A DNA stretch of 64,000 nucleotides from positions 124,001-188,000 of the forward strand of contig OZ025781.1 in NCBI GenBank assembly GCA_964019425.1, written 5' to 3'. This document shows positions 1 through 64,000 of this stretch, one piece after another. Both the position numbers and the translations under genes were made by a program. The notes beneath the pieces were generated by a model. The model made no database searches and was not told the origin of the DNA. It saw nothing but the letters and a program-made list of their open reading frames with translations. The stretch is from Flectonema sp. DT1601. Its lineage: Eukaryota. Positions within the stretch are counted from its first letter, which is position 1. Each line of letters opens with the position of its first letter.

Positions 1-1724
1 TCATTAATAATTGGAGTCGATGGTAACAAACATGGGATGCCATCAGATGATGATTCAGCTATGTAGTTTGCATATCGTCTTACAAAGTTTATTTGTATCT
101 GAGATTCAACGCTACGAGGATCTCTAAAATGTCGAACACGAGCAACAGCAGACTCCGTACTATCTACTACACCAAGACGTAAAAGTAAACAAGCTGCTAC
201 CAGTCCTGCTCTTCCCACACCTCCACGACAGTGAACAAGGACAGATCCACCCGTTTTAATTTCCGACACTAGTTTCCGATCGACTATCTCCCTGTCAAAT
301 TCTGCGGCATCTGACGGAGCAGCCATTTCAATAATGGGATAATTTATTAATTTAACATTTCTTTTTGAACACACTTGATCATACATTTCTGGATGAACTC
401 CCAATGTTCTCAACTCTGAAGGATTCAACAAACATAAAATACTTGTGATTCCAAACTTATCTTTTGCGTGTTGAATATCATTGTTAAGTGAGCGTAAGTA
501 GCTCTTACCGTTACGGCCAGCAGCCATCTTTTTACCTGGACAGGTACTTAAATATAAAGAACCACCTTCAGCTGACTTATAAACAATGGAGGCTCTAAAA
601 GGAGCCACTTTACTAGTCTCAGCTAAGGTTTCGTCTTTCTTCATGGCAACTTGTTGAGCCTTTCCTCTCCGCAAGAATGGTCGTCTTCCGAACACCTCCT
701 TCGGTGATGTCGCATTTGGTGATACCGGAGATGTCGGTCCTCTAAAACTGTTCTCCAGTCCAGTGGTGGGTGATCCTGGAGATGTCAGTTGTATAACACT
801 GCTTTCCAGTCCATTAATAGATGATCCTGGAAATGTTGGTCGTGTGAAACTATTTTCCAGTCCAGACGGTTTTCTAATACTGTTTTGTCTATTTACTGGT
901 GATCCCGGAGATGGACCTCCAAAACTGTTTTGTCTATTTATTGGCGATCCAGGACCAGGAGATGGTCTTCTATAACTGTTTCCCAGTCCAGGTCCTCCAA
1001 AACTGTTTTGTCTATTTACTGGCGATCCAGGACCAGGAGACTGTCCTCTAAAACTATTCCCCAGTCCAGACGGTTTTCTAATACTGTTTTGCCTATTTAC
1101 TGGTGACCCCGGAGATGGACCTCCAAAACTGTTTTGTCTATTTATTGGTGATCCCGGACCAGGAGACTGTCCTCTATAACTGTTCCCCAGTCCAGACGGT
1201 TTTCTAATACTGTTTTGTCTATTAATTGGCGATCCGGGACCAGGAGACTGTCCTCTAAAACTATTTTCCAGTCCATATGGTTTTCTAATACTGTTTTGCC
1301 TATTTACTGGTGACCCTGGAGATGGTCCTCCAAAACTGTTTTGTCTATTTACTGGCGATCCAGGACCAGGAGACTGTCCTCTAAAACTATTCCCCAGTCC
1401 AGACGGTTTTCTAATACTGTTTTGTCTATTTACTGGTGACCCCGGAGATGGTCCCCCAAAACTGTTTTGTCTATTTATTGGTGATCCAGGACCAGGAGAT
1501 TGTCCTCTATAACTGTTCCCCAGTCCAGACGGTTTTCTAATACTGTTTTGTCTATTTACTGGTGCTGGAGATGGCCTTCTGATACTATTTTGTCTACTAA
1601 CTGGTGATCCTGGAAATTGTTTTCTAATACTGTTTTGTCTATGTATCGGTGATCCCAGAGATGGTCTTCCAATACTGCTTTCCAGTCTATTAATTGTAGT
1701 GGCTGGTGCAACGTCAGCAGACAT
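1..1724 (-). CDS. CDKN3/KAP-like dual-specificity protein phosphatase with a Ser/Pro/Gly/Arg tandem-repeat N-terminus; 3' end runs off the window
   Basis: Missing from the ORF track because its stop lies outside the window. ATG at 1724 gives MSADVAPATTINRLE...; same frame contains VLVHCRGGVGRAG (HCx5R, 210-233), LYLSTCPGKK, YPIIEMAAP and RSVESQIQINFV, typical of CDKN3-type phosphatases. Confidence 0.85.
   Translation of the reverse strand, partial: MSADVAPATTINRLESSIGRPSLGSPIHRQNSIRKQFPGSPVSRQNSIRRPSPAPVNRQNSIRKPSGLGNSYRGQSPGPGSPINRQNSFGGPSPGSPVNRQNSIRKPSGLGNSFRGQSPGPGSPVNRQNSFGGPSPGSPVNRQNSIRKPYGLENSFRGQSPGPGSPINRQNSIRKPSGLGNSYRGQSPGPGSPINRQNSFGGPSPGSPVNRQNSIRKPSGLGNSFRGQSPGPGSPVNRQNSFGGPGLGNSYRRPSPGPGSPINRQNSFGGPSPGSPVNRQNSIRKPSGLENSFTRPTFPGSSINGLESSVIQLTSPGSPTTGLENSFRGPTSPVSPNATSPKEVFGRRPFLRRGKAQQVAMKKDETLAETSKVAPFRASIVYKSAEGGSLYLSTCPGKKMAAGRNGKSYLRSLNNDIQHAKDKFGITSILCLLNPSELRTLGVHPEMYDQVCSKRNVKLINYPIIEMAAPSDAAEFDREIVDRKLVSEIKTGGSVLVHCRGGVGRAGLVAACLLLRLGVVDSTESAVARVRHFRDPRSVESQIQINFVRRYANYIAESSSDGIPCLLPSTPIIN
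760..1690 (-). repeat. Coding tandem repeat, ~126-bp higher-order unit (81 + 45 bp subunits)
   Basis: Recurrent ctgttttgtctatttactggtga/ggcgatcc; period 126 bp between 1261 and 1387; encodes SPVNRQNSIRKPSGLGNSFRGQSPGPG + SPVNRQNSFGGPSPG. Confidence 0.9.
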
Positions 1725-2041: not shown

Positions 2042-3838
2042 TTAAAACCCATTATTATAATCAGTGAAATGGCACCATCTGTTAACTAGAGCACTCCTCT
2101 CATCAGGAACGGCCCTTCCAACTCTACCGAGTACCTGAAGTGATTGGTAGCACTTTGTTATGTGAGTAGCATTGCAAGACTTTGCTAAAGCACTCATCAA
2201 CCATGCCATGGTGTAACGAAGACCTTGATCAGCACCAGCACCACCACCTTTACCTGGGAGACGAGGGAATGCATTTGAAATTTCAATCCGAGCAATCTTC
2301 AGTGAGAGATTCGAAATTGATGACAAATACTTATCGTCTGTGTCATTCTGGTTAGTCAATCTGACACAAGCAAAAGCTGTTTCCATATAAAATTCACCCA
2401 GAGGAAGTTTTGATGGATTTCCGTTTATATTATTAACTTGTCCTGCTGCTGTCTCAAGTATAGAACATACGGCACTACGAGCCTTTACTCTTACCGAATC
2501 GTATATTGTTCCGAGTAATCCCAGTGTTAGTACACTATGAGATAAGACGTTGTGTTGACCACTTTTATTAACCCTCGGGGGGTTATTAAATATCAATTTT
2601 ATAATGTAGTCACCCACCATGTGAGCAACCGTTTCAGTTAGGATGCCGCCACTCTCTCCGATGGCGAGAAGACAACTCGCAGCAATCAACGGTCTGACGT
2701 CTTTTGCAATTTCTATTAGAGACAATAATTTTTCGATGTGATCTTCGTTTTTACAGTAGTATAATGAAGCTGAGAGACCATGACGAACTGAACGGACAGC
2801 CATTTCATCATCATGGAACGTTGGGTTAGAGAGCAAGTTCAATAACTCTGACACAGACAGAGTATACGCAGACTGTAATCTTACTACGTCACATGTCGCT
2901 CCGAGTAAAGCCAATTTATTTAACGGCCTACTGCAAGGAGGAGGGGTTGGCATTTCTGATGGTACAAAACCATAAATCCAATTCCTAATATGTGAGTGAA
3001 TAGAAGCTAACGGTGACCTGTCAACTGGTGTTGGGGGAGGAATGGATGAACTTCTTGGAAACGATTGCCTCAACACTTCATATTTAAACATCCATCTTCT
3101 CTTTGAATCAGTATTAGCCATTCCTCTATGAAATATATCCTTATGAACTATGACACAGCTTCCAGCCTTTACTTCCATTTGTTGCTCTGACGTGTTCCAT
3201 ATTTTTAAATATGGTTTTAGTTTTTCTCTTTGAAGGTGTCGTTCATCTACGCCACCCTCAGGATGTAAATATTGAGTTCTTGCAATTATAGAAGTTGCTG
3301 CGAGTGATATTGTCGTGTCTTGTGGGTAATACATAACCATACACCACCACGGAGCATGTGATCTTCTCATATTAAATCCAGCAAAGTTATCCTTATGAAC
3401 ATTCTGTGGTCTGGATCCTGGATCATTATTCATACCTGTTAAGTGTTTATGAAGAACGTAGTCTGATCCGAGAAGTGTAGCAAGTGCTCCAGAAACTTTA
3501 TTATAATTTGGGTTCATTACAATTGGTAGTAATTCTGGTACTGCAGGGGCGATGTTATTTCCGATTGCCGAATGGTTTCTCGTTCCCTCAATGAACCCAG
3601 CTTGAATCAGTGCTTCATCGCTGTCTTTTATTATCTTGTTGTTAGTCTCTGTTGAGGCAGCGTTTTCAATTACTAAGTAGCCTTCCTTTATAAAGAACTC
3701 AATTTCTTTCTCATCTAACGTTGGTTTTGGTAATTGCGGCGCGTCCAGTAGCATCACGCCAGTAGCAGCAGATTTCTTCGCAGCTGCTTTCTTTCTCTTC
3801 TTCTTATCACGAATACTACTGCTGCTTATGTGAGACAT
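2042..3838 (-). CDS. Phytanoyl-CoA dioxygenase (PhyH)-family Fe(II)/2-oxoglutarate dioxygenase with C-terminal HEAT/ARM-like helical region
   Basis: FFIKEGYLVIEN start of PhyH fold, QNVHKD (HxD), distal FHRGMAN His and following Arg; Ala/Leu-rich helical C-half (CLLAIGE, VLTLGLLG). Confidence 0.75.
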   Translation of the reverse strand: MSHISSSSIRDKKKRKKAAAKKSAATGVMLLDAPQLPKPTLDEKEIEFFIKEGYLVIENAASTETNNKIIKDSDEALIQAGFIEGTRNHSAIGNNIAPAVPELLPIVMNPNYNKVSGALATLLGSDYVLHKHLTGMNNDPGSRPQNVHKDNFAGFNMRRSHAPWWCMVMYYPQDTTISLAATSIIARTQYLHPEGGVDERHLQREKLKPYLKIWNTSEQQMEVKAGSCVIVHKDIFHRGMANTDSKRRWMFKYEVLRQSFPRSSSIPPPTPVDRSPLASIHSHIRNWIYGFVPSEMPTPPPCSRPLNKLALLGATCDVVRLQSAYTLSVSELLNLLSNPTFHDDEMAVRSVRHGLSASLYYCKNEDHIEKLLSLIEIAKDVRPLIAASCLLAIGESGGILTETVAHMVGDYIIKLIFNNPPRVNKSGQHNVLSHSVLTLGLLGTIYDSVRVKARSAVCSILETAAGQVNNINGNPSKLPLGEFYMETAFACVRLTNQNDTDDKYLSSISNLSLKIARIEISNAFPRLPGKGGGAGADQGLRYTMAWLMSALAKSCNATHITKCYQSLQVLGRVGRAVPDERSALVNRWCHFTDYNNGF

Positions 3839-23709: not shown

Positions 23710-25509
23710 CTAGACTACTCGTTTATACTGACGGGGTTTGTACGGTTGGCAAATATCATTGGAGGTGTTCGCTAGACTTGAAGGAGCTCCAAATGACAGG
23801 TGCCAGTACAATTCAAATGTTTCAACGAGAGGACTGCGTACGTGTGAGTTAAAATTATCTAACAACCATCCAAAGTAATCATGTGGTATCATATCAATCA
23901 TTTCCTGAGTAACTACAAAATGACCTCCAATTCTGGGGAGGAGTTCACCAGTGAAATCTTCAAACGGCCAATCTTTCTCACCATATCCAGGTAGCTTTTG
24001 CATGACACGGACTTGGTGATTGTGACGTTCCCGATACTCGTTTCCGTCTAGAAGGGTTGCTGATTTGATCCTCTTACGAATATCATCGAGCCTCACTTTG
24101 ATGTCTTCAATCATAGCAGATCCTAATCCAACATATTGATTGTGTTGGTGAGAACATGAACGAGCTTCTTCAATCTTTTTTATAATTGAGAGGTCGGTTT
24201 CATCCCCTCTCATGAATACAACTGTTTGATATTTCTTTCTATACTTCCTTCGCAGATAGATTAAGTATCCAGCAACATAGTTACAGTCTTCTTGTTTGAG
24301 TAGTTTACAACCGAATCCTTCAGGATGTCGAACCCATAGATTGTAACCAGATTTTTGTAACGATGAGACTAATTCTGGGTTTACTCCGTCAATATGCTCA
24401 CCCAGAACAACAATCGTATCAGTCTTCCAATCGTCACCAGTATTCTCAGTTTTAATTTCTTGCATGTATCTATCGGGTACAATAACTCCAGTTAATAGTT
24501 CATTGACTTTCTTATCATAAGCCAAACTCACGAACTTATTATTAGCCGGTAAGCACTGAGGTATTAAATTATAAACATCTAATTGGACTGGAAGACCAAA
24601 GGCAACATGCCAACTGTATTCCCAAAATTGAGAATTTAAAACTGGTTTGTTAACGGTAAGCTCCTTAGCCTTCTCCCAAAATGAATCGTTTCTAGTAATG
24701 AAAGATTTCGGGACTACGAATTGAGCTGACTGGGGTGCCCTTCTTCGAGTTTCTAACACGCCAGTAAATTCAGAAAAATAAGTGTTCCATTGAGGGCCAT
24801 AACCAGCCCAATAAGGGTTGTGTAACCACATGCTATCAGCGTATATCAGTGGATGAAGTGATACGAATCCATCATATCCTCTTGAACAATTCAAAGCAGT
24901 TGTTAGTAACAACATTGGATCTATTCCCCCAGTGTGCCATTTAGGTCCGTGGCCGTGTAAGAATGCAATGCGATCTCTGATTGGTCTCTTTGGATCTTTG
25001 TCAGATAAATATCTAACATAACCTTGTTGTTCTTTACAATAAAGTTGTGGGTGATCTTTATCGAGGCAGACATAGTTGCTTATCCAGACTAAGAAACCAG
25101 CGTTCAGTAGCTCGTCCATCACGTTCTTTGGGCATATTGACCCCCCGATTACGATAAGAGTGTCGTTCACCTGAGGGACGGTTTTCCTGTATTTCCAATT
25201 TCCGACAGAATTCGATTCAACAACAATTGATTCATCGACAGGTTCTGGAGGCGGTGTCGTTTTTGCAGGTGGCAGTGTCGTTTTTTCAGATGACGGTGTT
25301 GGTGTTGACGACGACGTCGAGGATCCTATCTTTGCTGTCAGCTGTTTTAATTTTTCCTCCCATTCGGAGTTCAATTCAGTCCTGACTTGATTTATTTTCT
25401 TATTAACTTCATCCATATCAACTCCAAGTTTCTTTCTTGGAATCAGCATTGTGCTCATGTAAGCAGCAAGGATCAATGCCACTATCAAAATTACGATACG
25501 CTTCGGCAT
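23710..25509 (-). CDS. Type II membrane protein with two tandem DUF3431-like (putative glycosyltransferase-like) domains
   Basis: N-terminal signal anchor and S/T/P stem; FLHGHGPKWH...SAQFVVP...WEYSWHVAFG, then VFMRGD...GGHFVVT...FELYWHLSFG. Confidence 0.7.
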   Translation of the reverse strand: MPKRIVILIVALILAAYMSTMLIPRKKLGVDMDEVNKKINQVRTELNSEWEEKLKQLTAKIGSSTSSSTPTPSSEKTTLPPAKTTPPPEPVDESIVVESNSVGNWKYRKTVPQVNDTLIVIGGSICPKNVMDELLNAGFLVWISNYVCLDKDHPQLYCKEQQGYVRYLSDKDPKRPIRDRIAFLHGHGPKWHTGGIDPMLLLTTALNCSRGYDGFVSLHPLIYADSMWLHNPYWAGYGPQWNTYFSEFTGVLETRRRAPQSAQFVVPKSFITRNDSFWEKAKELTVNKPVLNSQFWEYSWHVAFGLPVQLDVYNLIPQCLPANNKFVSLAYDKKVNELLTGVIVPDRYMQEIKTENTGDDWKTDTIVVLGEHIDGVNPELVSSLQKSGYNLWVRHPEGFGCKLLKQEDCNYVAGYLIYLRRKYRKKYQTVVFMRGDETDLSIIKKIEEARSCSHQHNQYVGLGSAMIEDIKVRLDDIRKRIKSATLLDGNEYRERHNHQVRVMQKLPGYGEKDWPFEDFTGELLPRIGGHFVVTQEMIDMIPHDYFGWLLDNFNSHVRSPLVETFELYWHLSFGAPSSLANTSNDICQPYKPRQYKRVV

Positions 25510-25845
25510 TTTCTAAGATTTCCCGTTCTATTCCTTGTCGGAGGGGAAAAAAAGGGGGAGTATATGGCTGCGGCAAAGAACACTTACTAAATAATTAGAT
25601 TTTTAGCGACAATTTAAGTACTCGCTATCAGAAGTGAATATGAGAGGTAGTAAAAAGAAATATGAGCAAATGGCAAAGGAAATAATCAAAAAAAAAAAAA
25701 AAAGAAAAAAAAAACTAACTAAAAATATTATTTTCCTTTATGGGCGAAGTGTGTTTAGAGACGTCGTCTCTGTGTTGCCTAAGAACCAGTTCTTAGGGGT
25801 AATTGTTTTTTTTTTTTTTTTTCCCAGATGGATTGCCAGACGTAC

Positions 25846-28055: not shown

Positions 28056-28266
28056 GTCAGTATCATTAATTTTAGAACAGAAAAGTGAGAATAAGAAAAG
28101 TAGAGATCAGTAAAAGAAAAGTATTCATTTCTGCAGTTTCCTAACATCAAAAGGGTAATAGAATATGTAGTTTTCAGGAGCCTTGATCTTATACTACTTG
28201 TCCCTTTTTAGGCCTTCATCAGTAAGTTCTAAGGGACTTCATTCTATGTTGAAGTTGCTTATCGTG
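28056..28266 (-). mobile_element. Solo degenerate copy of the Penelope-like element 3' end, including the hammerhead-like motif
   Basis: Closely matches 59383-59586; motif at 28158-28247 has small insertions (AGGCTCCT, GAAAAC); gtcagtat occurs on both sides (28056, 28283). Confidence 0.75.
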
Positions 28267-45380: not shown

Positions 45381-45673
45381 CAATTTATTATGTTTTCATC
45401 AACGAGAAGGAAAAACTTTGTTAGCTATTTAATCCAAACGTTGCTGTATATAATGAGTACTAATACAAGAAGACCCAATCTGTAACCGTCTCAAATGACT
45501 GTTTGGACTGTTGAAGTAGCCTCAACTGAAGGGAAGCTTCAACTTTATATAGAAAATTAAAGAACAACAAATTCTAGCCTTCCATCCTTGACCAAGCTTA
45601 ACAACCTATTTAAATAAAGAACAAAGTGAACCGAAATTTGAAAAATAAAATAAATACATAAATAAGATAAAAG

Positions 45674-54201: not shown

Positions 54202-55139
54202 AGAAAACTGATGATGAGAAGTTGTGGATTCATCGTATTGACTGGATGGGTAACTATTTGTGGTATCGACTTAGTACGAATATCTGTGTTGATGTCCTGG
54301 AAAAGAAAAGTATCAATCAATTTAGTGACTAACATTAAAAAACCAACACAGCCCAGCAGGTAGCTGTCGGGATAACGGAGTTAGTTGTTCAACGCCTGGG
54401 CTCCCTGTTGAGGGAAGTCATCCGGCAATCGAGTTGTTTACTTGCATCCCAGTGTTATCGAAACAAACGAAATTTATCTTTACGGTGTGAAGTCGCTTGA
54501 ACAATATAAAATATTACTCAGAAAATGTCGGGAAGACGACAAATTCTGATCAAAAAAAAAGAAGAGGGATTTTATTTTCTTCGTATCTTTTTTCTTTATT
54601 CCCTTCGCAGTGCAATTAATACGACGACTACTTGTACGATGGGCAATCGTGTTCAATCCAAGGCGATTGTTCAAAAGGTTTTCACGGCAATTCAGTACTG
54701 GTTCCCTGCTTGTGATGTCATTCTCAGACATCTATTTCTTTTCTGTTGACAGTTCCCTTAAGAGAGGAGCAAAAGAGAAAGCAAAAAAGGTTTCAGAAAA
54801 ACACGAAAATGAAAACAACAACTGTTGTACGGTTCCCAAAGTTGCCGATAGCAGCAGCTTTTCGTGCCTTTTTTCCCCTCCTCCGCCTTCAGTTTCTTTT
54901 GATTTGTGTTCCACTAACTACTGACTACCTCACAGTAGCAAGTGAAAAGCTAATGAAATTATAGCAATAAAGGACAGACAGAGAGTAACCTCCCATCTAA
55001 CCGTTGTTCTATACGCAAGTTAATGGTCTAGAATAGTAGAGAAACCAAATGAGAGTTTTATGGAATGAATTCGTGGAAGAGATGTCACCAAGGATGTGGA
55101 AACGTTTGTCGAGTTACGTTTTCTCTCTTAAATTCTCAG
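54202..55139. repeat. Right copy of ~935-bp direct repeat bracketing the S41 array
   Basis: Near-identical to 26672-27604. Confidence 0.9.
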
Positions 55140-56217
55140 TTAGTGCGATTCTTTTTCTTTTTTTTTATTTTTCTTGTTTTTCGTTCTCTTTTTTTTTTCC
55201 CCTACGAGAAATCTCGAGTCGAGCATATAACTAGAGCGGTGGTCAAAACCCTCAAGAGAAATTTATAAGGAGAACATTTTTCATGTTGGGTTGTTTCGAG
55301 TAGTTAGAATTTTCACAACTTATTTTTGTGGTTTCCCTTATTTTTTTTTTTTTTTTTTTTTTCGGAGATCACTTTCTTCAAAGACGGATATGAAAGAAAC
55401 ATCAAAACAAAAACCATTCAGACATTTACTTCAGACCATTGCTGCAGTAAAAGTTTAGCAACAAACAAGAAAAACAAAACAAAAAAAACCACTCAGTCAC
55501 ACAATCCGAATAGTATCTCCTCTGCAAAAAAACAAGGGGAAAAAAAAAAAAGAAAAAAAAATGTATCATTTAGTATAATATTATGGTATCATTTATTTGT
55601 AACCAGTAACAGTAGTAACTTTATAATACCAAAGCAATAAGGTATAAACTGAAAAAAAAAAAAAAAAACTGAGCTTTCCTTTTAGAACAGCAGCTAAAAA
55701 AGCAAAGATAATGTATTCTCTCGTACATAACTAAAATAATGTTAATACGAGTATCCAGAATGTAGTTCGGGGGCCAAGTTGAACACCCCGTGCAGTCAGT
55801 TACGGAGAATGTAAATTTCTTTTCTTCTTTTCAGTTTTCCGTTATCGTATTTTGAAAGAAGGGGGAAATTTGATACTGCATTTAAGATTGAGAAAAACAA
55901 CAAAAAACGTTCTTTATTTTAATTTTCTGAGGGGGAAACTTAGGTCTTGTGAGTCAGACAGTATGAAATGTTGTCAACGTCCCCTCTCAGTACAATGCGC
56001 TCTACTTCATCCTGACAAGTTCTCCCTTGTGAGTGCATCCCTCTGCCTTCCCTGCAAAGAAGGTACGTTTGTAGACTTAAACACAGAGAGCCGTTGCGTC
56101 AGACTAAACTAAAAGCATCTATCTGCGTTTAAATAAAAAAAAATAAAAAAGTTAACGCTAAAATTATAACGACAAAAAAAAAAACGTTCTGATGACAAAG
56201 AAAATAAAAGGTTTCCT

Positions 56218-58036
56218 TCAAACTGCTTCTTTCTCCTCCTCAACATGGGAATCACGGGTTGCGAACCTCAGGAACAGTTCAGTACCCTTCTTCATGGTAG
56301 CAGTAAATAGTAAATTGATGTATATTTTAACTGGTCGATTTGCCCTTATAAAATACAACCTTATAATAACAACGACGAGTAACAACGCGAGAGAGACAAA
56401 AGCAGTATTCCACTCACCAGTCTTCCGATTGTTATATTCCGTATCATCTGGGGTGCTGTATTTCAGAAGGACATAAATATTGTCGGAGGGACTTACCGTG
56501 TCGATGGTAAGCTGATTTGGTTCACCAAAAATAGTGTGCCAATAAAATTCAAGAAATTTTAAATGTAAAATAACTAAAGGAGTAGTCAACTCTCTCACGT
56601 ACCCGACATTCATCGGGTCTATTTCATAAACGGACTTAGCAGGGACTACGAAATCACTTGTTGCGAAACCCTGACCAGCTGCTTTGAAAGGTGACTCTTT
56701 TGGCCAGGACCTAACCATCACCGGACGTGCATGTGGTCTGGCGAATTTTCCAGCAGGAAAATAACCTTTTCGTTCTCTGCTTTTCAAGGCTGCGTATAAG
56801 ATATCAGTCGCGGATATCTTTATTAAACCAGATACGAATACAAACACATCAGATTGTAAGTCACGATGATCAGCTCCATTTACATCATCAAGACCATAAT
56901 GAGCCATAAATCTCGAATATCCTTCTGTGTGACTACACGGAGCACCTCCAACAAAAAGGTTCACGTTGACAGAACCGTATGGACAGTTGTATGTTGGCTG
57001 ACGAATCCAAACACCAAAAGTACTACCGAGTGATGTCGATAAGATTGACTCGATGATGTTTGACGTCATCAGTTCTGTTGGATCACTTCCAAAGACGACT
57101 GTAATTCTAATCTCATCTTTTGGTGCCGATGGAAACATCCACCAGCCTTCAGAGTCGTGAAAAAATTGCCTTCCAGAAGTTGGCCATCTCAATAACGGTT
57201 TTGTTAACCGAGGCTTCTTCTTAGCACCAGTACAAGTACCAGCTGGGTATAAGGTTTTTGACGTCGTGTTAATATTTGGATCTTCACCAAGGATGTATCC
57301 CCAAGTGAACTCCAAATCGAACGCGTCCAGTTCACAAAACTTTTTATTCTTTAACAACTTCTTTTGAGGAGACAACTCCCAACAGCGTTTCGTAAAACTT
57401 TTCTGATCTCATTCCGATCAACTTCTGTAATATCGTGAATTGCCCCCCCATAAACCCATTGAATACTGACGGAGCTGGAAGTAACGGATGAAGGCTGCTC
57501 CTTTTCCATCTTGTTTCAAAGCCATACTTCTCAATCCGAGCAGGAATACTCGGCTGGTAAATCCAACCGAGAGAAGCGTATCGACCAGTTTGAGATGCGC
57601 AGAGAATCGACTGCTGAATAAGTGAATGGATATCATCAGTTTGATGCCATGCTTCAAGATGTCCGTGAATGAATGTAACAAACTCCCCAGTTGGTTTTTT
57701 TGGAATTGACATATCAGCCAAGTAAGTTGAGTACCCAACTGACTCTCTACAACAAGCAGCGATCGCACATTTCTTTCGTCGTCCCCACACAGTGTACCCG
57801 ATGCTTACTAAATACTCAACAGTTCTGAAATCACTTCCTCCAATTACAACTAACGATTTCACTTCATCACTAACGTCCAACCTTCCCCAAATTCCATTTT
57901 CATTTGCATCCCAAGTCGCACCCATCCTTTCCAATAATGTTGCTATCGTGTTATTATTTCTCAGTAATTTAATCTTATGATCTAACATACTCTGACTACT
58001 AGCTAAGAGCGTTACCAACAGTAGAATTGATTGCAT
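56218..58036 (-). pseudogene. Tandem DUF3431-like protein with signal peptide and C-terminal TM, split by a +1 frameshift near 57345-57375
   Basis: 57344-58036 has FIHGHLEAWH and GGQFTI; 56218-57375 continues with LEFTWGYILG and a second domain (SDFVVP, LEFYWHTIFG) plus TM. Pseudogene or sequencing error. Confidence 0.7.
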
Positions 58037-58293
58037 AATTTTTGTAACCCACGATGTCTAATTGCAGGGAAATAAAAAAAAAAAAAAAAAAAATTATTAA
58101 TTACGATTACGATTTACTGATCTTTTTTTTTCCTTTTTCCCTCAAATTCTATTTCTATAATAAAAAAAACATAAAAAACTCTAAAATAGTAAATAAAGTA
58201 ATATGTGGTACAGATTTCCTTAGAAAGGAAAAGATCTAATCGATTAAACAAAAGGTCACTTTTAAACGACTCAAAATAGAAGTTGTATTCCGT

Positions 58294-59367
58294 TTACATC
58301 ATCCTGTTTGGAATGTAGGAAGTGTTTTGTAGTCTGCGAAGTCCATCGTTCTCAACTTCAAGTGTTTTAATGTATTCAGACAACACTTGCTTCTCTCTCT
58401 CAATGACCGCGCAAGCCTTCGTCGCTTCGGCAAACTTCGTCCAATCAACTTTCATTGCCTGGCACCGTTCTTTCATTTTCTCGTAGCGGGATTCGAGTTT
58501 TCTGACTGAAGTTGCATCCGGTTGAGACAGCATGGAGGTGTCTATTGCGCGTCTTTTTTTACCACCGCCGTGGATGTGGGGATCGAGTGGACGGACTGGA
58601 TGGGTCTTCATAAGACCACCACTGTGAACTCTTTCAGAACAAATAGAACACATTCGACCTCTACAAAGTGTACAAACAACTTCAGCAGGTCGTTGAAGAC
58701 AATCTTCACACAGAGGTCGAGTACCAAGTGGTGCGATTGTTGCTGTTTGTGTTTGATGTTGGACGTCATCTTGAGCAGACAGCTCTTGTTGGATTCGAAG
58801 GCGTTCTGCCTCAGCGTACTCTGACAACATGTTGTCTCTATCTTTGATTGCTGATGTTGTTAGATGCTGTGATTTTACGATAGTCTCAGCCAATGCTGTT
58901 ACTTCTTCTTGAGTGCTGTGTTCTTTTGATTTAAATATCTGAAGCTCAAGTTCGTGACGAGACTCCATTTGTTTCATTCTGTCATTAGCAGCCTCCACTG
59001 CTTCATGAATACCTCTTTTGACTAAAAGTTGCTCAAGTCTGGCACTTGCGATTTCCGCATCTTTGCGTGCAGTTGCTGCCAGCAGTCCAAGATTCTCAAT
59101 AAGCCCAACTGCGAGTAAATTTGTTCCCTTGAATTGCGTAGACGAAGGCGTCCAAATGCAACCAAACGGCATCAGCATTTCATTATCGTTTGGGAACATG
59201 GATATTTTTTGAAGGTGTCTTCCGTGCTTCAAGTTCGATACCGTGACAGGTTGATTTTCAAGACCAGCTGCTCCCAAAGGGGAGCCCCTGGTTAGAATAT
59301 TACGATCTAAAGTCGCAGAAGTAAGCCCAACATTAACAACAGGGTACTCAACATCAACAACAGCCAT
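58294..59367 (-). CDS. Coiled-coil protein with a B-box zinc finger
   Basis: CEDC...VVCTLC...CSICSERVH...KTH B-box pattern flanked by coiled coils. Confidence 0.75.
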   Translation of the reverse strand: MAVVDVEYPVVNVGLTSATLDRNILTRGSPLGAAGLENQPVTVSNLKHGRHLQKISMFPNDNEMLMPFGCIWTPSSTQFKGTNLLAVGLIENLGLLAATARKDAEIASARLEQLLVKRGIHEAVEAANDRMKQMESRHELELQIFKSKEHSTQEEVTALAETIVKSQHLTTSAIKDRDNMLSEYAEAERLRIQQELSAQDDVQHQTQTATIAPLGTRPLCEDCLQRPAEVVCTLCRGRMCSICSERVHSGGLMKTHPVRPLDPHIHGGGKKRRAIDTSMLSQPDATSVRKLESRYEKMKERCQAMKVDWTKFAEATKACAVIEREKQVLSEYIKTLEVENDGLRRLQNTSYIPNRMM

Positions 59368-59482
59368 TGGGTAGTTATTTAGTTAGTATCATTAATTTTA
59401 GAACAGAAAAGTGAGAATAAGAAAAGTAGAGATCAATAAAAGAAAAGTATTCATTTCTGCAGTTTCCTAACATCAAAGGGTA

Positions 59483-59569
59483 ATAGAATATGTAGTTTCA
59501 GGCCTTAATCTTATACTACTTGTCCCTTTTTAGGCCTTCATCAGTAAGTTCTAAGGGACTTCATTCTAT
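59483..59569 (-). ncRNA. Candidate non-circularly permuted hammerhead ribozyme
   Basis: CUGAUGA 59544-59538; stem II AGGCCU/AGGCCU; GAAA 59499-59496; stem III GUAGU/ACUAC; GUA site; stem I CUUA/UAAG; extra 7-bp stems GUCCCUU/AAGGGAC and AUAGAAU/AUUCUAU. Confidence 0.65.
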
Positions 59570-59648
59570 GTTGAAGTTGCTATCGTTCAAAGATAAAAAT
59601 CCATCGGAGCTCGCCAGGATAGGGCTAGCAATGTTTATTTGCTTTTGC

Positions 59649-60458
59649 TCAATTTGAATTTTTGACGTCTGGTCGTTTCACTATTACAGTCGAGTTAATG
59701 GATGAGTCGTCATCCAATTTCCGTTTTACTTTATCATCGCATACCATCAAAGGTCCTATATTCGCAGGTGTCATTGTAACATCCATATCAGTCTGAGCTT
59801 TTAATGGTATCATATGGAAACTATATTCTGTAGTTTGGTACATCTTGTCAAAATGGTCGAAAGGGAGTCTTAAATCTTTTGTGCCTTTAAGAATGTCTCG
59901 GATGATCATGGACTCAAATGAGACTAGCGCAACAATAAAGTGAGTCATCCTTGTTTTCGCTTTATGCAGACTAAGTGCTGCGGCTGCTTCAGGATAATCG
60001 AAATCTGCAGGGTTAACGAAGTACTCAATTCTCCTGTTGAATTTAGTCATGCAAGCCATGTTAAGTACTTGTAGCGAGAACCAACCATCTGGTGATGGTT
60101 TATGCTCTGAGTTGTTCGGTTCTACTTTAAGAGATTCTTCATAAAATCGCTGTTGGTAGTTTTGCAGAAAACTGAAGTTAATTCTATCGATATATAAATG
60201 ATCTGCAATGAAGTTGAGCGCTGCCCATCCGCATTCTCCACCGAGAAGACCTTCTCCTGATGTTTGATGTAGGGATGGTGGAAATCGTTTATCCAAGGAA
60301 TGGCTTGTAGAGCCCGTATGGTTAATTGTATCCTTTTCGATGCTTAATGGGACTTTGTGACTAAACTTCTCAAAAGTAAGGTTGATACGTCGACGCATTG
60401 CAGCTGCTGTATTACCATCATCAATGTGAGAGCTAATGAAGCGGCTGCTCTGATATTG
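59649..60458 (-). CDS. Josephin-like (ataxin-3/JOSD, papain-fold) cysteine protease domain, probable frameshifted C-terminus of the RT ORF
   Basis: ECGWAALN (Cys 60231-60233), DGWFSLQVLNMA, His 59940-59942, Asp 59895-59897 15 residues later, EYSFHMI; frame open from 60458 and overlapping the RT frame. Confidence 0.65.
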   Translation of the reverse strand, partial: QYQSSRFISSHIDDGNTAAAMRRRINLTFEKFSHKVPLSIEKDTINHTGSTSHSLDKRFPPSLHQTSGEGLLGGECGWAALNFIADHLYIDRINFSFLQNYQQRFYEESLKVEPNNSEHKPSPDGWFSLQVLNMACMTKFNRRIEYFVNPADFDYPEAAAALSLHKAKTRMTHFIVALVSFESMIIRDILKGTKDLRLPFDHFDKMYQTTEYSFHMIPLKAQTDMDVTMTPANIGPLMVCDDKVKRKLDDDSSINSTVIVKRPDVKNSN

Positions 60459-61888
60459 TCAGATTTATAGCCCCGGTTGAGTAATCTATAAGTTACCGCT
60501 TCAAGTTCCTGTAAAAAATCTGCCTGGTTGTTGCAGATTTTTAAAGCTCGTAAGATCATGGTGGTAAAGATACCTGAACCCATTGATTCTTGAGCTGCGG
60601 AATGCTGATGGGTAAACCTTGTTGGCGTAATATGCCAACCCCTGGCTTTGTCGTTAACACTTAAACGAATCCATCGTTTATTTGTGCTAGTGATCTCTAT
60701 TCGGATACGAATTCCTATATAAGAGACATCATCGATATTATTCGAAGTATCAGTGTAATCCATTGAGTATAGACTTGCTGGTGGAGGGTCACAACTCCAG
60801 GTGAGGAAGTCGTCGATGTATCTACACGACTGGTCATGTTGCCGAGCTAAGTCTAGATTTTTTGCTTCAATTAAAGAATCGATATATGCGGATTCAACTC
60901 TATAGCAGTAGAGATTTGCTATATCGCTACTGGCGTTGCCACCCATTGGAATGCCTATTGTTTGTCTCCAAATATAACCTCTTAATGCAATAAAGGAGGA
61001 GTCAATACAGAATTCAAGTAATTTTTGACATTCTGCAAGCGCAAGAGACGGGAATCGTGTAGGGTCACTCGATTCAAGACGTAAGATATTTTTGAAACTA
61101 AAGGCTTCTTGCAGTGCTTCACTTACTTTAGTTTTAATAGCGTTGTGTGGTAGGCGGGTGTACATTGTTGTAAAATCAAAAGTCTTCGGGGATAATTTTT
61201 TCAAAACCATCAAATTCTGTTTAATCGAACTAGAGACTTCATCATCTGATTCCACAATCCAGTATCGTTTGAACCGTGAATGCATATCTTTCTCTTTTAA
61301 TATAGTCATCGCATTTTTAAGGATACTAGAGAGATGTTGGTGCGCATATGTTGTTGCTGTAGCGGGTGCAAGATTATGATCCTTATCGTATTGTCGTTGT
61401 TCCGCTGTACCCGTGAAGGATGAGACACCAGTAATCCATCTCATCCCGATAGCTGATTTGTGTAATTTAATCATTCCATATAGGTGTGGGAGTCGATCAG
61501 AGTGGCGGGCATTGATTGAAATGTTCATGTTCTTGAGGTTGGCTAGTAGAGTTGGTTCGTCTGATGTGATGCGTTCATAAGAATCACTTTGTAGCTGCTC
61601 TCGAAGTAAAAGCAAATAATTTAATTTACACATGTAACCAATATCGTGCTGTCCTTTGTCAACTTTAAGAAATACAAACTGAGATTGAAGATTCTGAAGT
61701 TCAGTCCATGCTTTATTTGATAATGGTGAGTCAAGAAAGCTTAAGTCTTTACTTAATTTAAGCTGCAATTGTTTAAGAATTGTGTTTTTAAAGATCGATT
61801 TAAAGTTATCGCCAACGTTCTTGTATGCGTGAGTTATATATTCAGTAATATCATTTTCAAGTGATTCTAATGCAGCTGATGGGTGCAC
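60344..61888 (-). pseudogene. Penelope-like reverse transcriptase with C-terminal helical (thumb/HTH) region, lacking its N-terminus
   Basis: KVDKG...YMCK, LPHLYGMIKLHK, FDFTTMYTRLPH, QTIGIPMGGNAS..IANLY, RYIDD (YIDD 60809-60820), RALKICN...EL...RGY; no ATG at the 5' end and an in-frame stop just upstream. Confidence 0.88.
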
Positions 61889-62162
61889 TGGGTTAGTTAT
61901 TTAATCCAACGTTACTGTATATTATGAGTGCTAGGTAACTCACAGTAACAGAGGACCCAATCCGTAGCCATATCCGAAGATTTCGCATGGATTGTTGAAG
62001 TAGCATCGACTGAAGATTAATAAATACCAATCTCCAGCTTTCCGCCTCGCCTAGCTTATTAAACTATCGAACTAAAAAAAAAAAAAAAATAATAATAATA
62101 ATAATAATAATAAATTACACTGATAATATACTAAAGCACTCGTAGAGCATTAGAAATTAACG

Positions 62163-62903
62163 CTAGGTTGGCAGCAGCCATTTATTTGAATCGAACCACA
62201 CTGGATCGATCCGAGAAAACTTAGAAGACCTAATCTTCTCCAGGAATGAATTAAAATGTTGGTTTTTGTTTTTATCCGAATTCAAGAAACAGTATATCTC
62301 CAAGTCCCACAAATGGTCGTAGACTTTTTCGATTTCATTTGCGTTATAAACTTCTGAGATCAGTTTTCTGACTTCCTCCTTACACTTCGAATCAAGTGTG
62401 GTAACAGTGGAATGAACGGACAAATATTTGACAAGGCGTTGTCGAGGGACCGCTCGACGTAACGGGAAGCTGTCGTGTAGGCTCCGGAGGTCATTCAAGA
62501 GCGATATGAGAGCCAACTGGTTTTCAGTAGCAAAAAACTTGTGTAGATGTTGACCCACATCCTCATCTTGATCATTAAATGCCATCTGTGGGAAGTGAAT
62601 TTGAACAAACATCTTAGTCTCCGGACATTTCGATAGTAAATGGTGAGTATCTGTATCTCTTTTATTACAGAAGAGACAGTTTGATAATCCCTTTCTTGGT
62701 TGCTTCACAAGCGGATGGTGTCCAGTCCTGAGGCGGGCGATTTGCATTTCTCCCTCACGGTTAAGATCTGGGTGGAAGCGTTGAGCACCTCTGCCCATTG
62801 TCGATAAAGAGTGCACATGTGATGTACTGCGCTGCTCGTACCAGTTTCTTCGGATTTTATTATTCACTGAACATTGGGTCATCCTGTAGTCAAACTTGAC
62901 CAC
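62163..62903 (-). mobile_element. 3' fragment of a non-LTR retrotransposon ORF (Ingi/I-group-like) with CCHC zinc knuckle
   Basis: IARLRTGH...CLFC...DTHHLLSKCP is the typical post-RT/RNase H motif of such LINEs; no RT upstream in the window. Confidence 0.7.
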
Positions 62904-63028
62904 TGTTAAGAAAAGGAATGATTTCCAACTTTAATAATAAAAAAAATAAAATAAAAAAGGAAATTTAACAGTAGATGTTCAATATCTACAACAGTTGCCC
63001 GAAGTCAGTCTTTTTTCGTCAAAAAATT

Positions 63029-63250
63029 TCAAACGACGAAACATAAGAAACGCTGATACCTGTTCGAAGATATCAGGGGAGGGGTGACTCTGATGGCAAC
63101 ATTGATGGGAAACAAAAAGGTCGAATCACAAAACTCAAAACACGCAAATGAATTGAACGAAACATGCAAACTGAAAACCCGCAGATTTGTATTTTCATTT
63201 AAACTACTCAAATAATCCAGTCTTGGTTTTATTTTCGTCAAGTTGTGATT
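63029..63250. repeat. Dispersed repeat module (also ~28735-28930, ~37650-37780, ~50035-50110; partial ~33880 and ~43235)
   Basis: Shared aaacataagaaacgctgatacctgttcgaagatatcaggggaggggtgactctgatggcaacat. Confidence 0.85.
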
Positions 63251-63645
63251 ACATGAAATGCGGGTAACATTTGGTCATTAATCATCACGGCAAACAAAAT
63301 AATTTAGACTAGCGTTGCTCGGAAGGATTATTCTCAGCTGCTTGTCTAGAGACTAACAGGTTCAAAACAACAAAGAAAGGAAAGAAATGATCGAAAACCC
63401 GCAGATTTGTATTTTCTTTTAAACTATTTTGTTATCCCAGTACTTTTCACATAATCAAGTTTTGGTTTTATTTCGTCAAGTCGTGATTACATGAAATGCG
63501 GGGAAATCTGAATTTTATTTTCATTTTCCCCATCGGGATATTAAACATCGCGGCAAAGTTTTCATAGCTTCGGTCGGAAGGATTACTCCCAGCTGCTTGT
63601 CTAGAGACTAACAGGTTGAAAACAACAAAGAAAGGAAAGAAATGA
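63172..63645. repeat. Local imperfect tandem duplication (~220-250 bp)
   Basis: gaaaacccgcagatttgtattttc at ~63173 and ~63393; cagctgcttgtctagagactaacaggtt twice. Confidence 0.8.
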
Positions 63646-64000
63646 TCAGAAGAGGGTAACCTGATACTACATCATTGGGAGGAAAGAGAAGGGAGTAATA
63701 ACTAAAAATGAAAAAAAAAAAAAATTAAAATTAAAATATCTTTTAGATTCCTTTATCTAAAACCTTTTCATTCATGAAATAATCACATATGTGTAATAAA
63801 GCCATTCACCTCCCAAAGTATTAATACCGTCGTAAAGGATTTATCATAGCCTATAAAATAAGAACCACACGAATAACTATAACAATCTGTAAGGAATAGA
63901 ATCAAAAGGAATCTTAAATAAGACCACACAGTCTTAACTGCTCCGGACCTCGACCGGAAATGGGAATTAAAAAAAAAAAATGAAATCAATACCAATTTTA

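Follow-up and report, generated by a model that had tools for sequence, protein, structure and literature searches.

The 3′ end of a Penelope-like element (PLE) in Flectonema sp. DT1601 holds an RNA motif in which the conserved nucleotides of the hammerhead ribozyme are all present and follow one another in an unusual order. This locus raises the question of whether the motif is a genuine hammerhead, how it relates to those already published, and what it would do for the element that carries it. All coordinates given without a locus name refer to the window, the whole stretch of 64,000 nt that was analysed (contig OZ025781.1, positions 124,001 to 188,000).

A complete hammerhead core in the order C-S-G

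The motif occupies 59483..59569 on the minus strand, and its sequence and coordinates, read from 59569 to 59483, agree with the original prediction. According to the descriptor and the pair table, its core is made up of three blocks, each of them uninterrupted and all on the minus strand. Block C (59532..59548) comprises a strand of stem I (59548-59545), CUGAnGA (59544-59538) and a strand of stem II (59537-59532). Block S (59510..59519) comprises a strand of stem III (59519-59515), the H17 nucleotide (59514), which belongs to a GUA triplet, and the second strand of stem I (59513-59510). Block G (59492..59505), with a 4-nt linker (59509-59506) directly on its 5′ side, comprises the second strand of stem II (59505-59500), GAA (59499-59497) and the second strand of stem III (59496-59492). 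The core is complete in CUGAnGA, GAAA, the U16.1-A15.1 pair and H17. Its order of CUGAnGA, cleavage site and GAAA (C-S-G) is non-circular, as had been proposed, and is the only assignment that we found for this core. The proposed site is likewise supported by the sequence: H17 is the A at 59514, and the RNA is predicted to be cut between 59514 and 59513.

Five helices had been drawn for this RNA, and all of them hold, with Watson-Crick pairing at every position (29/29 pairs). Within the core, the pair table gives Watson-Crick stems I (4 bp, 59548-59545 with 59513-59510) and II (6 bp, 59537-59532 with 59505-59500), and stem III (5 bp, 59519-59515 with 59496-59492) has pair probabilities of 0.95-1.0. 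A 7-bp joining helix (59559-59553 with 59528-59522) is the same helix that is present in the published ribozymes CSG-1 and CSG-2, and a further closing helix of 7 bp (59569-59563 with 59489-59483, its 5′ arm being 59563..59569) has pair probabilities of 0.65-0.99. Both strands of stem II are one identical palindrome. The 10.1-11.1 pair is A-U in the window, a less active pair than the G-C that occupies this position in four fetched relatives and in both published CSG sequences.

The window was searched on both strands with a descriptor that permitted all six block orders and required at least four Watson-Crick pairs per stem. The motif was the sole match in the 64 kb, and 300 block-wise dinucleotide shuffles of the window returned no site at all. 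When the requirement was lowered to two pairs per stem, the core still allowed C-S-G with H17 at 59514 and nothing else. Several other readings were tried and rejected: even at two pairs per stem, the upstream GUC had no valid assignment as a cleavage site, neither a canonical type I reading (order C-G-S, with a hairpin stem II) nor a type III reading could be assigned, and the S-G-C order of a type-SGC reading was not found in the core by the descriptor. An Rfam search of 55000-64000 gave no hammerhead match at E ≤ 10. The evidence for the whole motif thus comes from the descriptor, the shuffles, the pair table and the fold, which is described below.

The nested minimum-energy fold of the RNA (-20.5 kcal/mol, z -2.95, with 2 of 200 shuffles equally good) contains stem III as well as the closing and joining helices, and stems I and II cross these nested helices as loop-loop pairings, as the original prediction claimed. 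The 4-bp duplex of stem I comes to +0.3 kcal/mol, and in the nested optimum block C is paired with itself, at 6.9 kcal/mol below the bare scaffold. We propose that the closing and joining helices, together with stem III, would build a three-way junction bearing two hairpins, of which the first exposes block C in its loop and the second exposes the strands that complete stems I and II. Zipping of the two loops would then produce an ordinary hammerhead core, with stems I and II clamped by the joining helix and the 4-nt linker in place of the loop I/II contact, and the ribozyme would act as a monomer. The fold in the window is almost certainly a conserved type-CSG hammerhead.

The ribozyme follows the ORF of a Chlamys-like Penelope-like element

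The original prediction also placed the ribozyme in a Penelope-like element, and this context is borne out: the ribozyme starts 80 nt past the stop codon of the element ORF (59651-59649). The element itself, a 5′-truncated, Chlamys-like PLE of the N-terminal-endonuclease kind, spans 59382..61891 on the minus strand, as delimited by tblastn and, for its 3′ end, by the match to a second copy (copy B, described below). Its reverse transcriptase (RT) region, with DKG and the core RT motifs, extends up to a frameshift near 60440 (60440..61891, minus strand), and the C-terminus of the ORF, in which alignment to P0011 reveals a Josephin-like domain, lies at 59649..60443 on the same strand. By tblastn, the window ORF matches residues 602-1350 of an intact relative, P0025, at 99%; the GIY-YIG endonuclease region is missing from the truncated window copy. 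Intact relatives of 1350 aa exist, the P0025 cluster having 59 members and that of the sister family P0029 having 24. Both families have an N-terminal GIY-YIG, CxC, DKG and PLE-type RT motifs, and their C-termini can be aligned with the Josephin domain of P0011. The GIY-YIG motif is visible with weak Pfam scores (P0025 residues 238-256, E 0.15; P0029, E 0.0073), the CxC and DKG/DKA motifs stand ahead of the RT at residues 560 and 679 of P0025, and a CxxC within the GIY-YIG, found in neither P0025 nor P0029, is present in the Naiad-like P0012. The part of P0011 that aligns with the C-terminus of the window ORF hits Pfam Josephin at E 4.4e-08; on its own, the Josephin-like region of the window gave no Pfam match and no homologue among 356 candidates. 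Judged by these motif features, the element appears to be an N-terminal EN+ PLE, with Chlamys as its closest group.

The named RTs nearest to that of the element are from Flectonema and Diplonema, and the WASH gene in the window shows 66% identity to Diplonema papillatum versus 36-38% to named animals. From such sequence comparisons, the host is likely to be a diplonemid. The insertion is bracketed by a 10-bp direct repeat (61903-61894 and 59381-59372, minus strand), which is a possible target-site duplication, and the 5′ flank of the element is similar to window positions 45420-45531. Directly after the element, 58294-59388 (minus strand) contains the 3′ part (residues 600-963, 96%) of P0047, a coiled-coil/B-box host gene whose 5′ part is absent from the window.

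Comparison with published hammerheads

Six block orders are defined by Eckert et al. 2023 (PMC10085705). The original prediction gave non-circular permutations as rarely reported; the claim is to be refined in that the order seen in the window has already been described there as type CSG. As presented in that paper, type CSG is known from five sequences, two of them unique, which come from soil metagenome DNA with no organism, neighbouring gene or associated ribozyme. CSG-1 and CSG-2 both cleaved in vitro where predicted, with rates of 0.004 and 0.026 per min, and the authors themselves grade the biological relevance of the type as weaker-supported (PMC10085705).

As these two sequences are given there, they and the window ribozyme are alike in strand order, in the joining helix, in the 2-nt spacer before stem III and in the short linker that separates stem I from stem II. 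The layout common to all three runs from the joining helix through stem I, core, stem II, joining helix and 2 nt to stem III, and after that stem III strand through the site, stem I, linker, stem II and GAA back to stem III. The 5-bp stem III of the window is one compensatory pair apart from that of published CSG. In contrast to the published sequences, the window ribozyme lies in a eukaryotic genome and inside a retroelement, and it has an extra closing helix, unpaired 4- and 3-nt linkers beside the joining helix, the A-U pair at 10.1-11.1 and a GUA site. The spacer between its stems II and III is 12 nt, whereas the descriptor of Eckert et al. fixes G10.1-C11.1 and permits at most 10 nt, and would for these reasons miss the window ribozyme; this failure is a limit of the search and not of the permutation type.

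The type I or minimal hammerheads described for other PLEs (PMC4209133, PMC11167929) share with the window the same core, a site near the 3′ end or pseudo-LTR, and the likely role. Those of type I have the order C-G-S, a hairpin stem II and often a tiny palindromic stem III that needs dimers (PMC4209133), whereas the window ribozyme is a double pseudoknot with a stable stem III. Type SGC, represented by HRIMA-1 in Eckert et al. 2023, resembles the window in its cyclic strand order, joining helix and short linker, SGC, GCS and CSG being rotations of one circle (PMC10085705); it is opened elsewhere and, unlike the window ribozyme, comes from metatranscriptomes of viroid-like RNAs and not from DNA. 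In the accessible passages of the open-access literature, including those of PMC13725137 and bioRxiv 10.64898/2026.07.22.740005, we found no link of permuted hammerheads to a PLE, another retroelement or a eukaryotic genome.

Some related elements carry the same circle of strands

A scan of genome contigs provided a sample of 22 loci with a Naiad-like RT, several of which share genomes; they are likely eukaryotic DNA binned into MAGs. A core-only descriptor returned five sites in four of these loci, all on the sense strand and all 3′ of the RT except for an extra site in L219. L206 has a contiguous CSG hammerhead with stems of 6, 5 and 10 bp. The cores of L215 (4933-5050, plus strand) and L219 (772-870 and 5330-5430, plus strand, one on each side of the ORF) are CSG with a two-hairpin insert of 30 or 29 nt between A9 and 10.1, and in L204 (3300-3405, plus strand) the same circle of strands is opened within the position of this insert. 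To judge from their sequences, L215 and L219 connect plain CSG with the opened form. The joining helix is 7 bp in the window, 12 bp in L206 and 13 bp in L215, and is weak in L219.

Across the window, L206, L215, L219 and L204, the first four positions of stem I are Watson-Crick in 20/20 pairs and the first five positions of stem II in 25/25, with two-sided letter changes at every tested position of both stems. The descriptor itself selects for pairing, and shuffles serve as the control for this covariation: 200 shuffled sets of the 22 loci yielded three matches, compared with the five observed, and 972,089 nt of unrelated loci yielded no match to the core descriptor. The descriptor had no match in 18 of the 22 loci; among the 16 loci with 500 nt or more downstream, 12 were without one. 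A further 45 loci, drawn from ten of these genomes and in part overlapping with the 22, contributed no new family. Matches at a relaxed threshold in L224 (antisense), L236 and L246/L252 were weak, likely due to chance, and were set aside.

A pattern scan of metagenome contigs found stems I and II in 0/80 matches, with a pattern that fixed the letters of stem III and would miss most relatives. The published CSG contigs were not among these matches, the shortest contig listed being 1015 nt. In viral contigs, the stems were present in none of at least 120 matches of the pattern scan, and none of 58 candidates was an RT relative of the element. In sequencing run X1, which is possibly the window's own source and not independent, two of three records covered the ribozyme without differences. 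A contig in record 2 of this run matches the ribozyme over its 3′ half (window 59486-59521, with 1 difference in 36 nt) and then diverges within the arm of the closing helix; it probably represents the sister family. Two further observations were made among these contigs. After its Naiad-like RT, L211 has three tandem repeats of about 290 nt (2400-3160, plus strand), every one of them combining a long stem with a CUGAnGA-like core and lacking an intact GAAA block, and the metagenome contig L137 has an ordinary type II hammerhead at 342-394 (plus strand).

Permuted hammerheads among Naiad consensus sequences

Naiad and most Chlamys elements were stated to be without canonical hammerheads by Craig et al. 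2021 (PMC8557442), who flag 'HHR_core' and 'HHR_half_core' cases that fit no descriptor, eight of them with the second half 35-50 nt away; the corresponding distance between the core halves of the window is 38 nt. The table in that paper has 54 Naiads, eight of them from nematodes. By inspection of the supplementary consensus sequences by eye, all eight nematode consensi end in a complete CSG hammerhead, with a joining helix of 8-13 bp, a stem I of 5-6 bp, a stem II of 4-6 bp and a stem III of 5-12 bp. Their sites are GUC or GUU, and the sequences of their stems are unrelated yet pair. The consensus passages of at least ten of the other 46 Naiads show, again by eye, the opened form, in which a stem II strand is followed by S, G, and stem I with the core, together with a closing helix and a hairpin; the carriers are Beroe, one Clytia, three Acropora, two Morbakka, one crustacean and two Octopus elements. 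At least four of the eight 'half core' cases (Parc, Nbra-3, Hpol and Ovul) appear to be accounted for in this way.

In the Chlamys consensus passages inspected by eye, no permuted hammerhead was recognised. The window element and its relatives share with Naiad and Chlamys, as described in PMC8557442, an N-terminal GIY-YIG, CxC, DKG, a PLE-type RT and 5′ truncation, and the window lineage shares with Chlamys-1_cBra an endonuclease without CCHH and a Josephin-like C-terminus. The passages of Craig et al. examined make no mention of diplonemids or euglenozoans.

Likely role of the ribozyme

We favor the interpretation, with a probability of roughly 0.78, that the window ribozyme cleaves after 59514 and so likely releases the RNA of the element from longer transcripts, whether tandem or read-through. 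The 3′ end of the element would double as a pseudo-LTR ahead of the next copy, and for this reason the cut would likely define the end of unit-length element RNA, a role that would parallel the one proposed for the type I hammerheads of other PLEs. Regarding such tandems, the window shows the truncated copy and one solo 3′ piece, and in L219 the motif flanks the ORF on either side. The solo piece, copy B (28056..28265, minus strand, 210 nt, 96% identical), begins 12-17 nt upstream of the ribozyme and ends at the 3′ end of the element. Its start does not coincide with the predicted cut, it retains the 5′ half in uncut form, and its block G is damaged. The ribozyme of the window copy may be slow, or dependent on the protein of the element.

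A different explanation would make the fold mainly a protein-binding RNA near the start of reverse transcription, with cleavage that is slow, protein-assisted or incidental. Such a reading would be consistent with the Poseidon PLE as reported by Frangieh et al. 2024 (PMC11167929), in which the hammerhead was cut only in the presence of protein, insertion in vitro could do without this cleavage and still took place with catalytic mutants, and RNA-seq gave no reads ending at the site; it would also agree with the slow rates of the published CSG ribozymes, with the weak stem I and the competing nested pairs of the window, and with the uncut 5′ half retained in copy B. We nevertheless regard it as unlikely. 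From the diplonemid to the nematode consensi, all catalytic nucleotides and a permissible U-H site are conserved while the letters of the stems vary, which argues against a mere binding site, since such a site needs no conservation of this kind. The original prediction allowed for a dimer in which two RNAs swap their self-complementary stem II strands, and the identical palindromes of the window, together with the view that metazoan PLE hammerheads work as dimers (PMC4209133), would suit this arrangement. However, known dimers offset an unstable stem III, whereas that of the window has 5 bp of high pair probability, and stem II is non-palindromic in L215, L219, L204 and most of the nematode consensi given in PMC8557442, so that a dimer through AGGCCU is not needed and we consider it very improbable.

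It could also be argued that the ribozyme belongs to a small, non-autonomous, retrozyme-like parasite that by chance sits at the end of the element, given that copy B is a solo piece of 210 nt beginning just ahead of the ribozyme and that Craig et al. suggest that hammerheads may parasitise PLEs (PMC8557442). Against this stands the fact that the window, four loci and the eight nematode consensi all have the ribozyme on the same strand and in the same position, a short way 3′ of the ORF; furthermore, both pseudo-LTRs of L219 carry it, and the end of copy B is the end of the element, as expected of 5′-truncated copies. An independent parasite is accordingly as poor a candidate as the dimer. The truncation and frameshift of the element copy and the damage in copy B might suggest that the motif arose by chance or is the functionless remnant of decay, but this is scarcely credible when none of 300 shuffles contains such a site, all 29 pairs of the five helices are intact and distant elements share the architecture.

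Implications for N-terminal-endonuclease elements

We lean, with some reserve, towards the broader reading that the ribozyme native to the N-terminal-endonuclease PLE clade as a whole, from diplonemids to animals, is a non-circularly permuted hammerhead, one ancient knotted fold in three forms: plain CSG in the diplonemid and the nematodes, CSG with the two-hairpin insert at A9/10.1, and the form opened in this insert. If this is true, the permutation of protein domains in this clade would have a counterpart in its ribozyme, and the soil CSG sequences, orphans so far, would derive from the tails of such elements. The spread of Naiad and Chlamys without canonical hammerheads, as reported in PMC8557442, had fed the idea of hammerheads as parasites of PLEs, and it is because this clade was reported to be without them that the find in the window is more telling. 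Should the clade have permuted forms that are invisible to standard descriptors and Rfam, self-cleavage would be closer to universal in PLEs. The CSG permutation was known; its pairing with a retroelement and a eukaryotic genome was absent from the papers found, and the retroelement and the closing helix set the window ribozyme apart within this type. Type CSG, so far two similar sequences with no host, is now placed in a genome and a mobile element and backed by broad evidence of covariation. The contribution of the window is that a Chlamys-like element outside the animals has the plain CSG core, in an RNA of 87 nt whose uninterrupted core is of a type known to cleave.

Other features of the window

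Elsewhere on the minus strand, 29285-54380 contains six tandem copies of a gene for a membrane-anchored protein with weak peptidase S41/CPAF-like matches. An ORF at 62163-62930 (minus strand) with a weak zf-RVT match (E 0.035) is likely the remnant of a non-LTR element. Finally, two overlapping ORFs at 56218-58057 (minus strand), the first with a weak DUF3431 match, are perhaps one frameshifted gene; the ORF at 23710-25512 has a look-alike motif.
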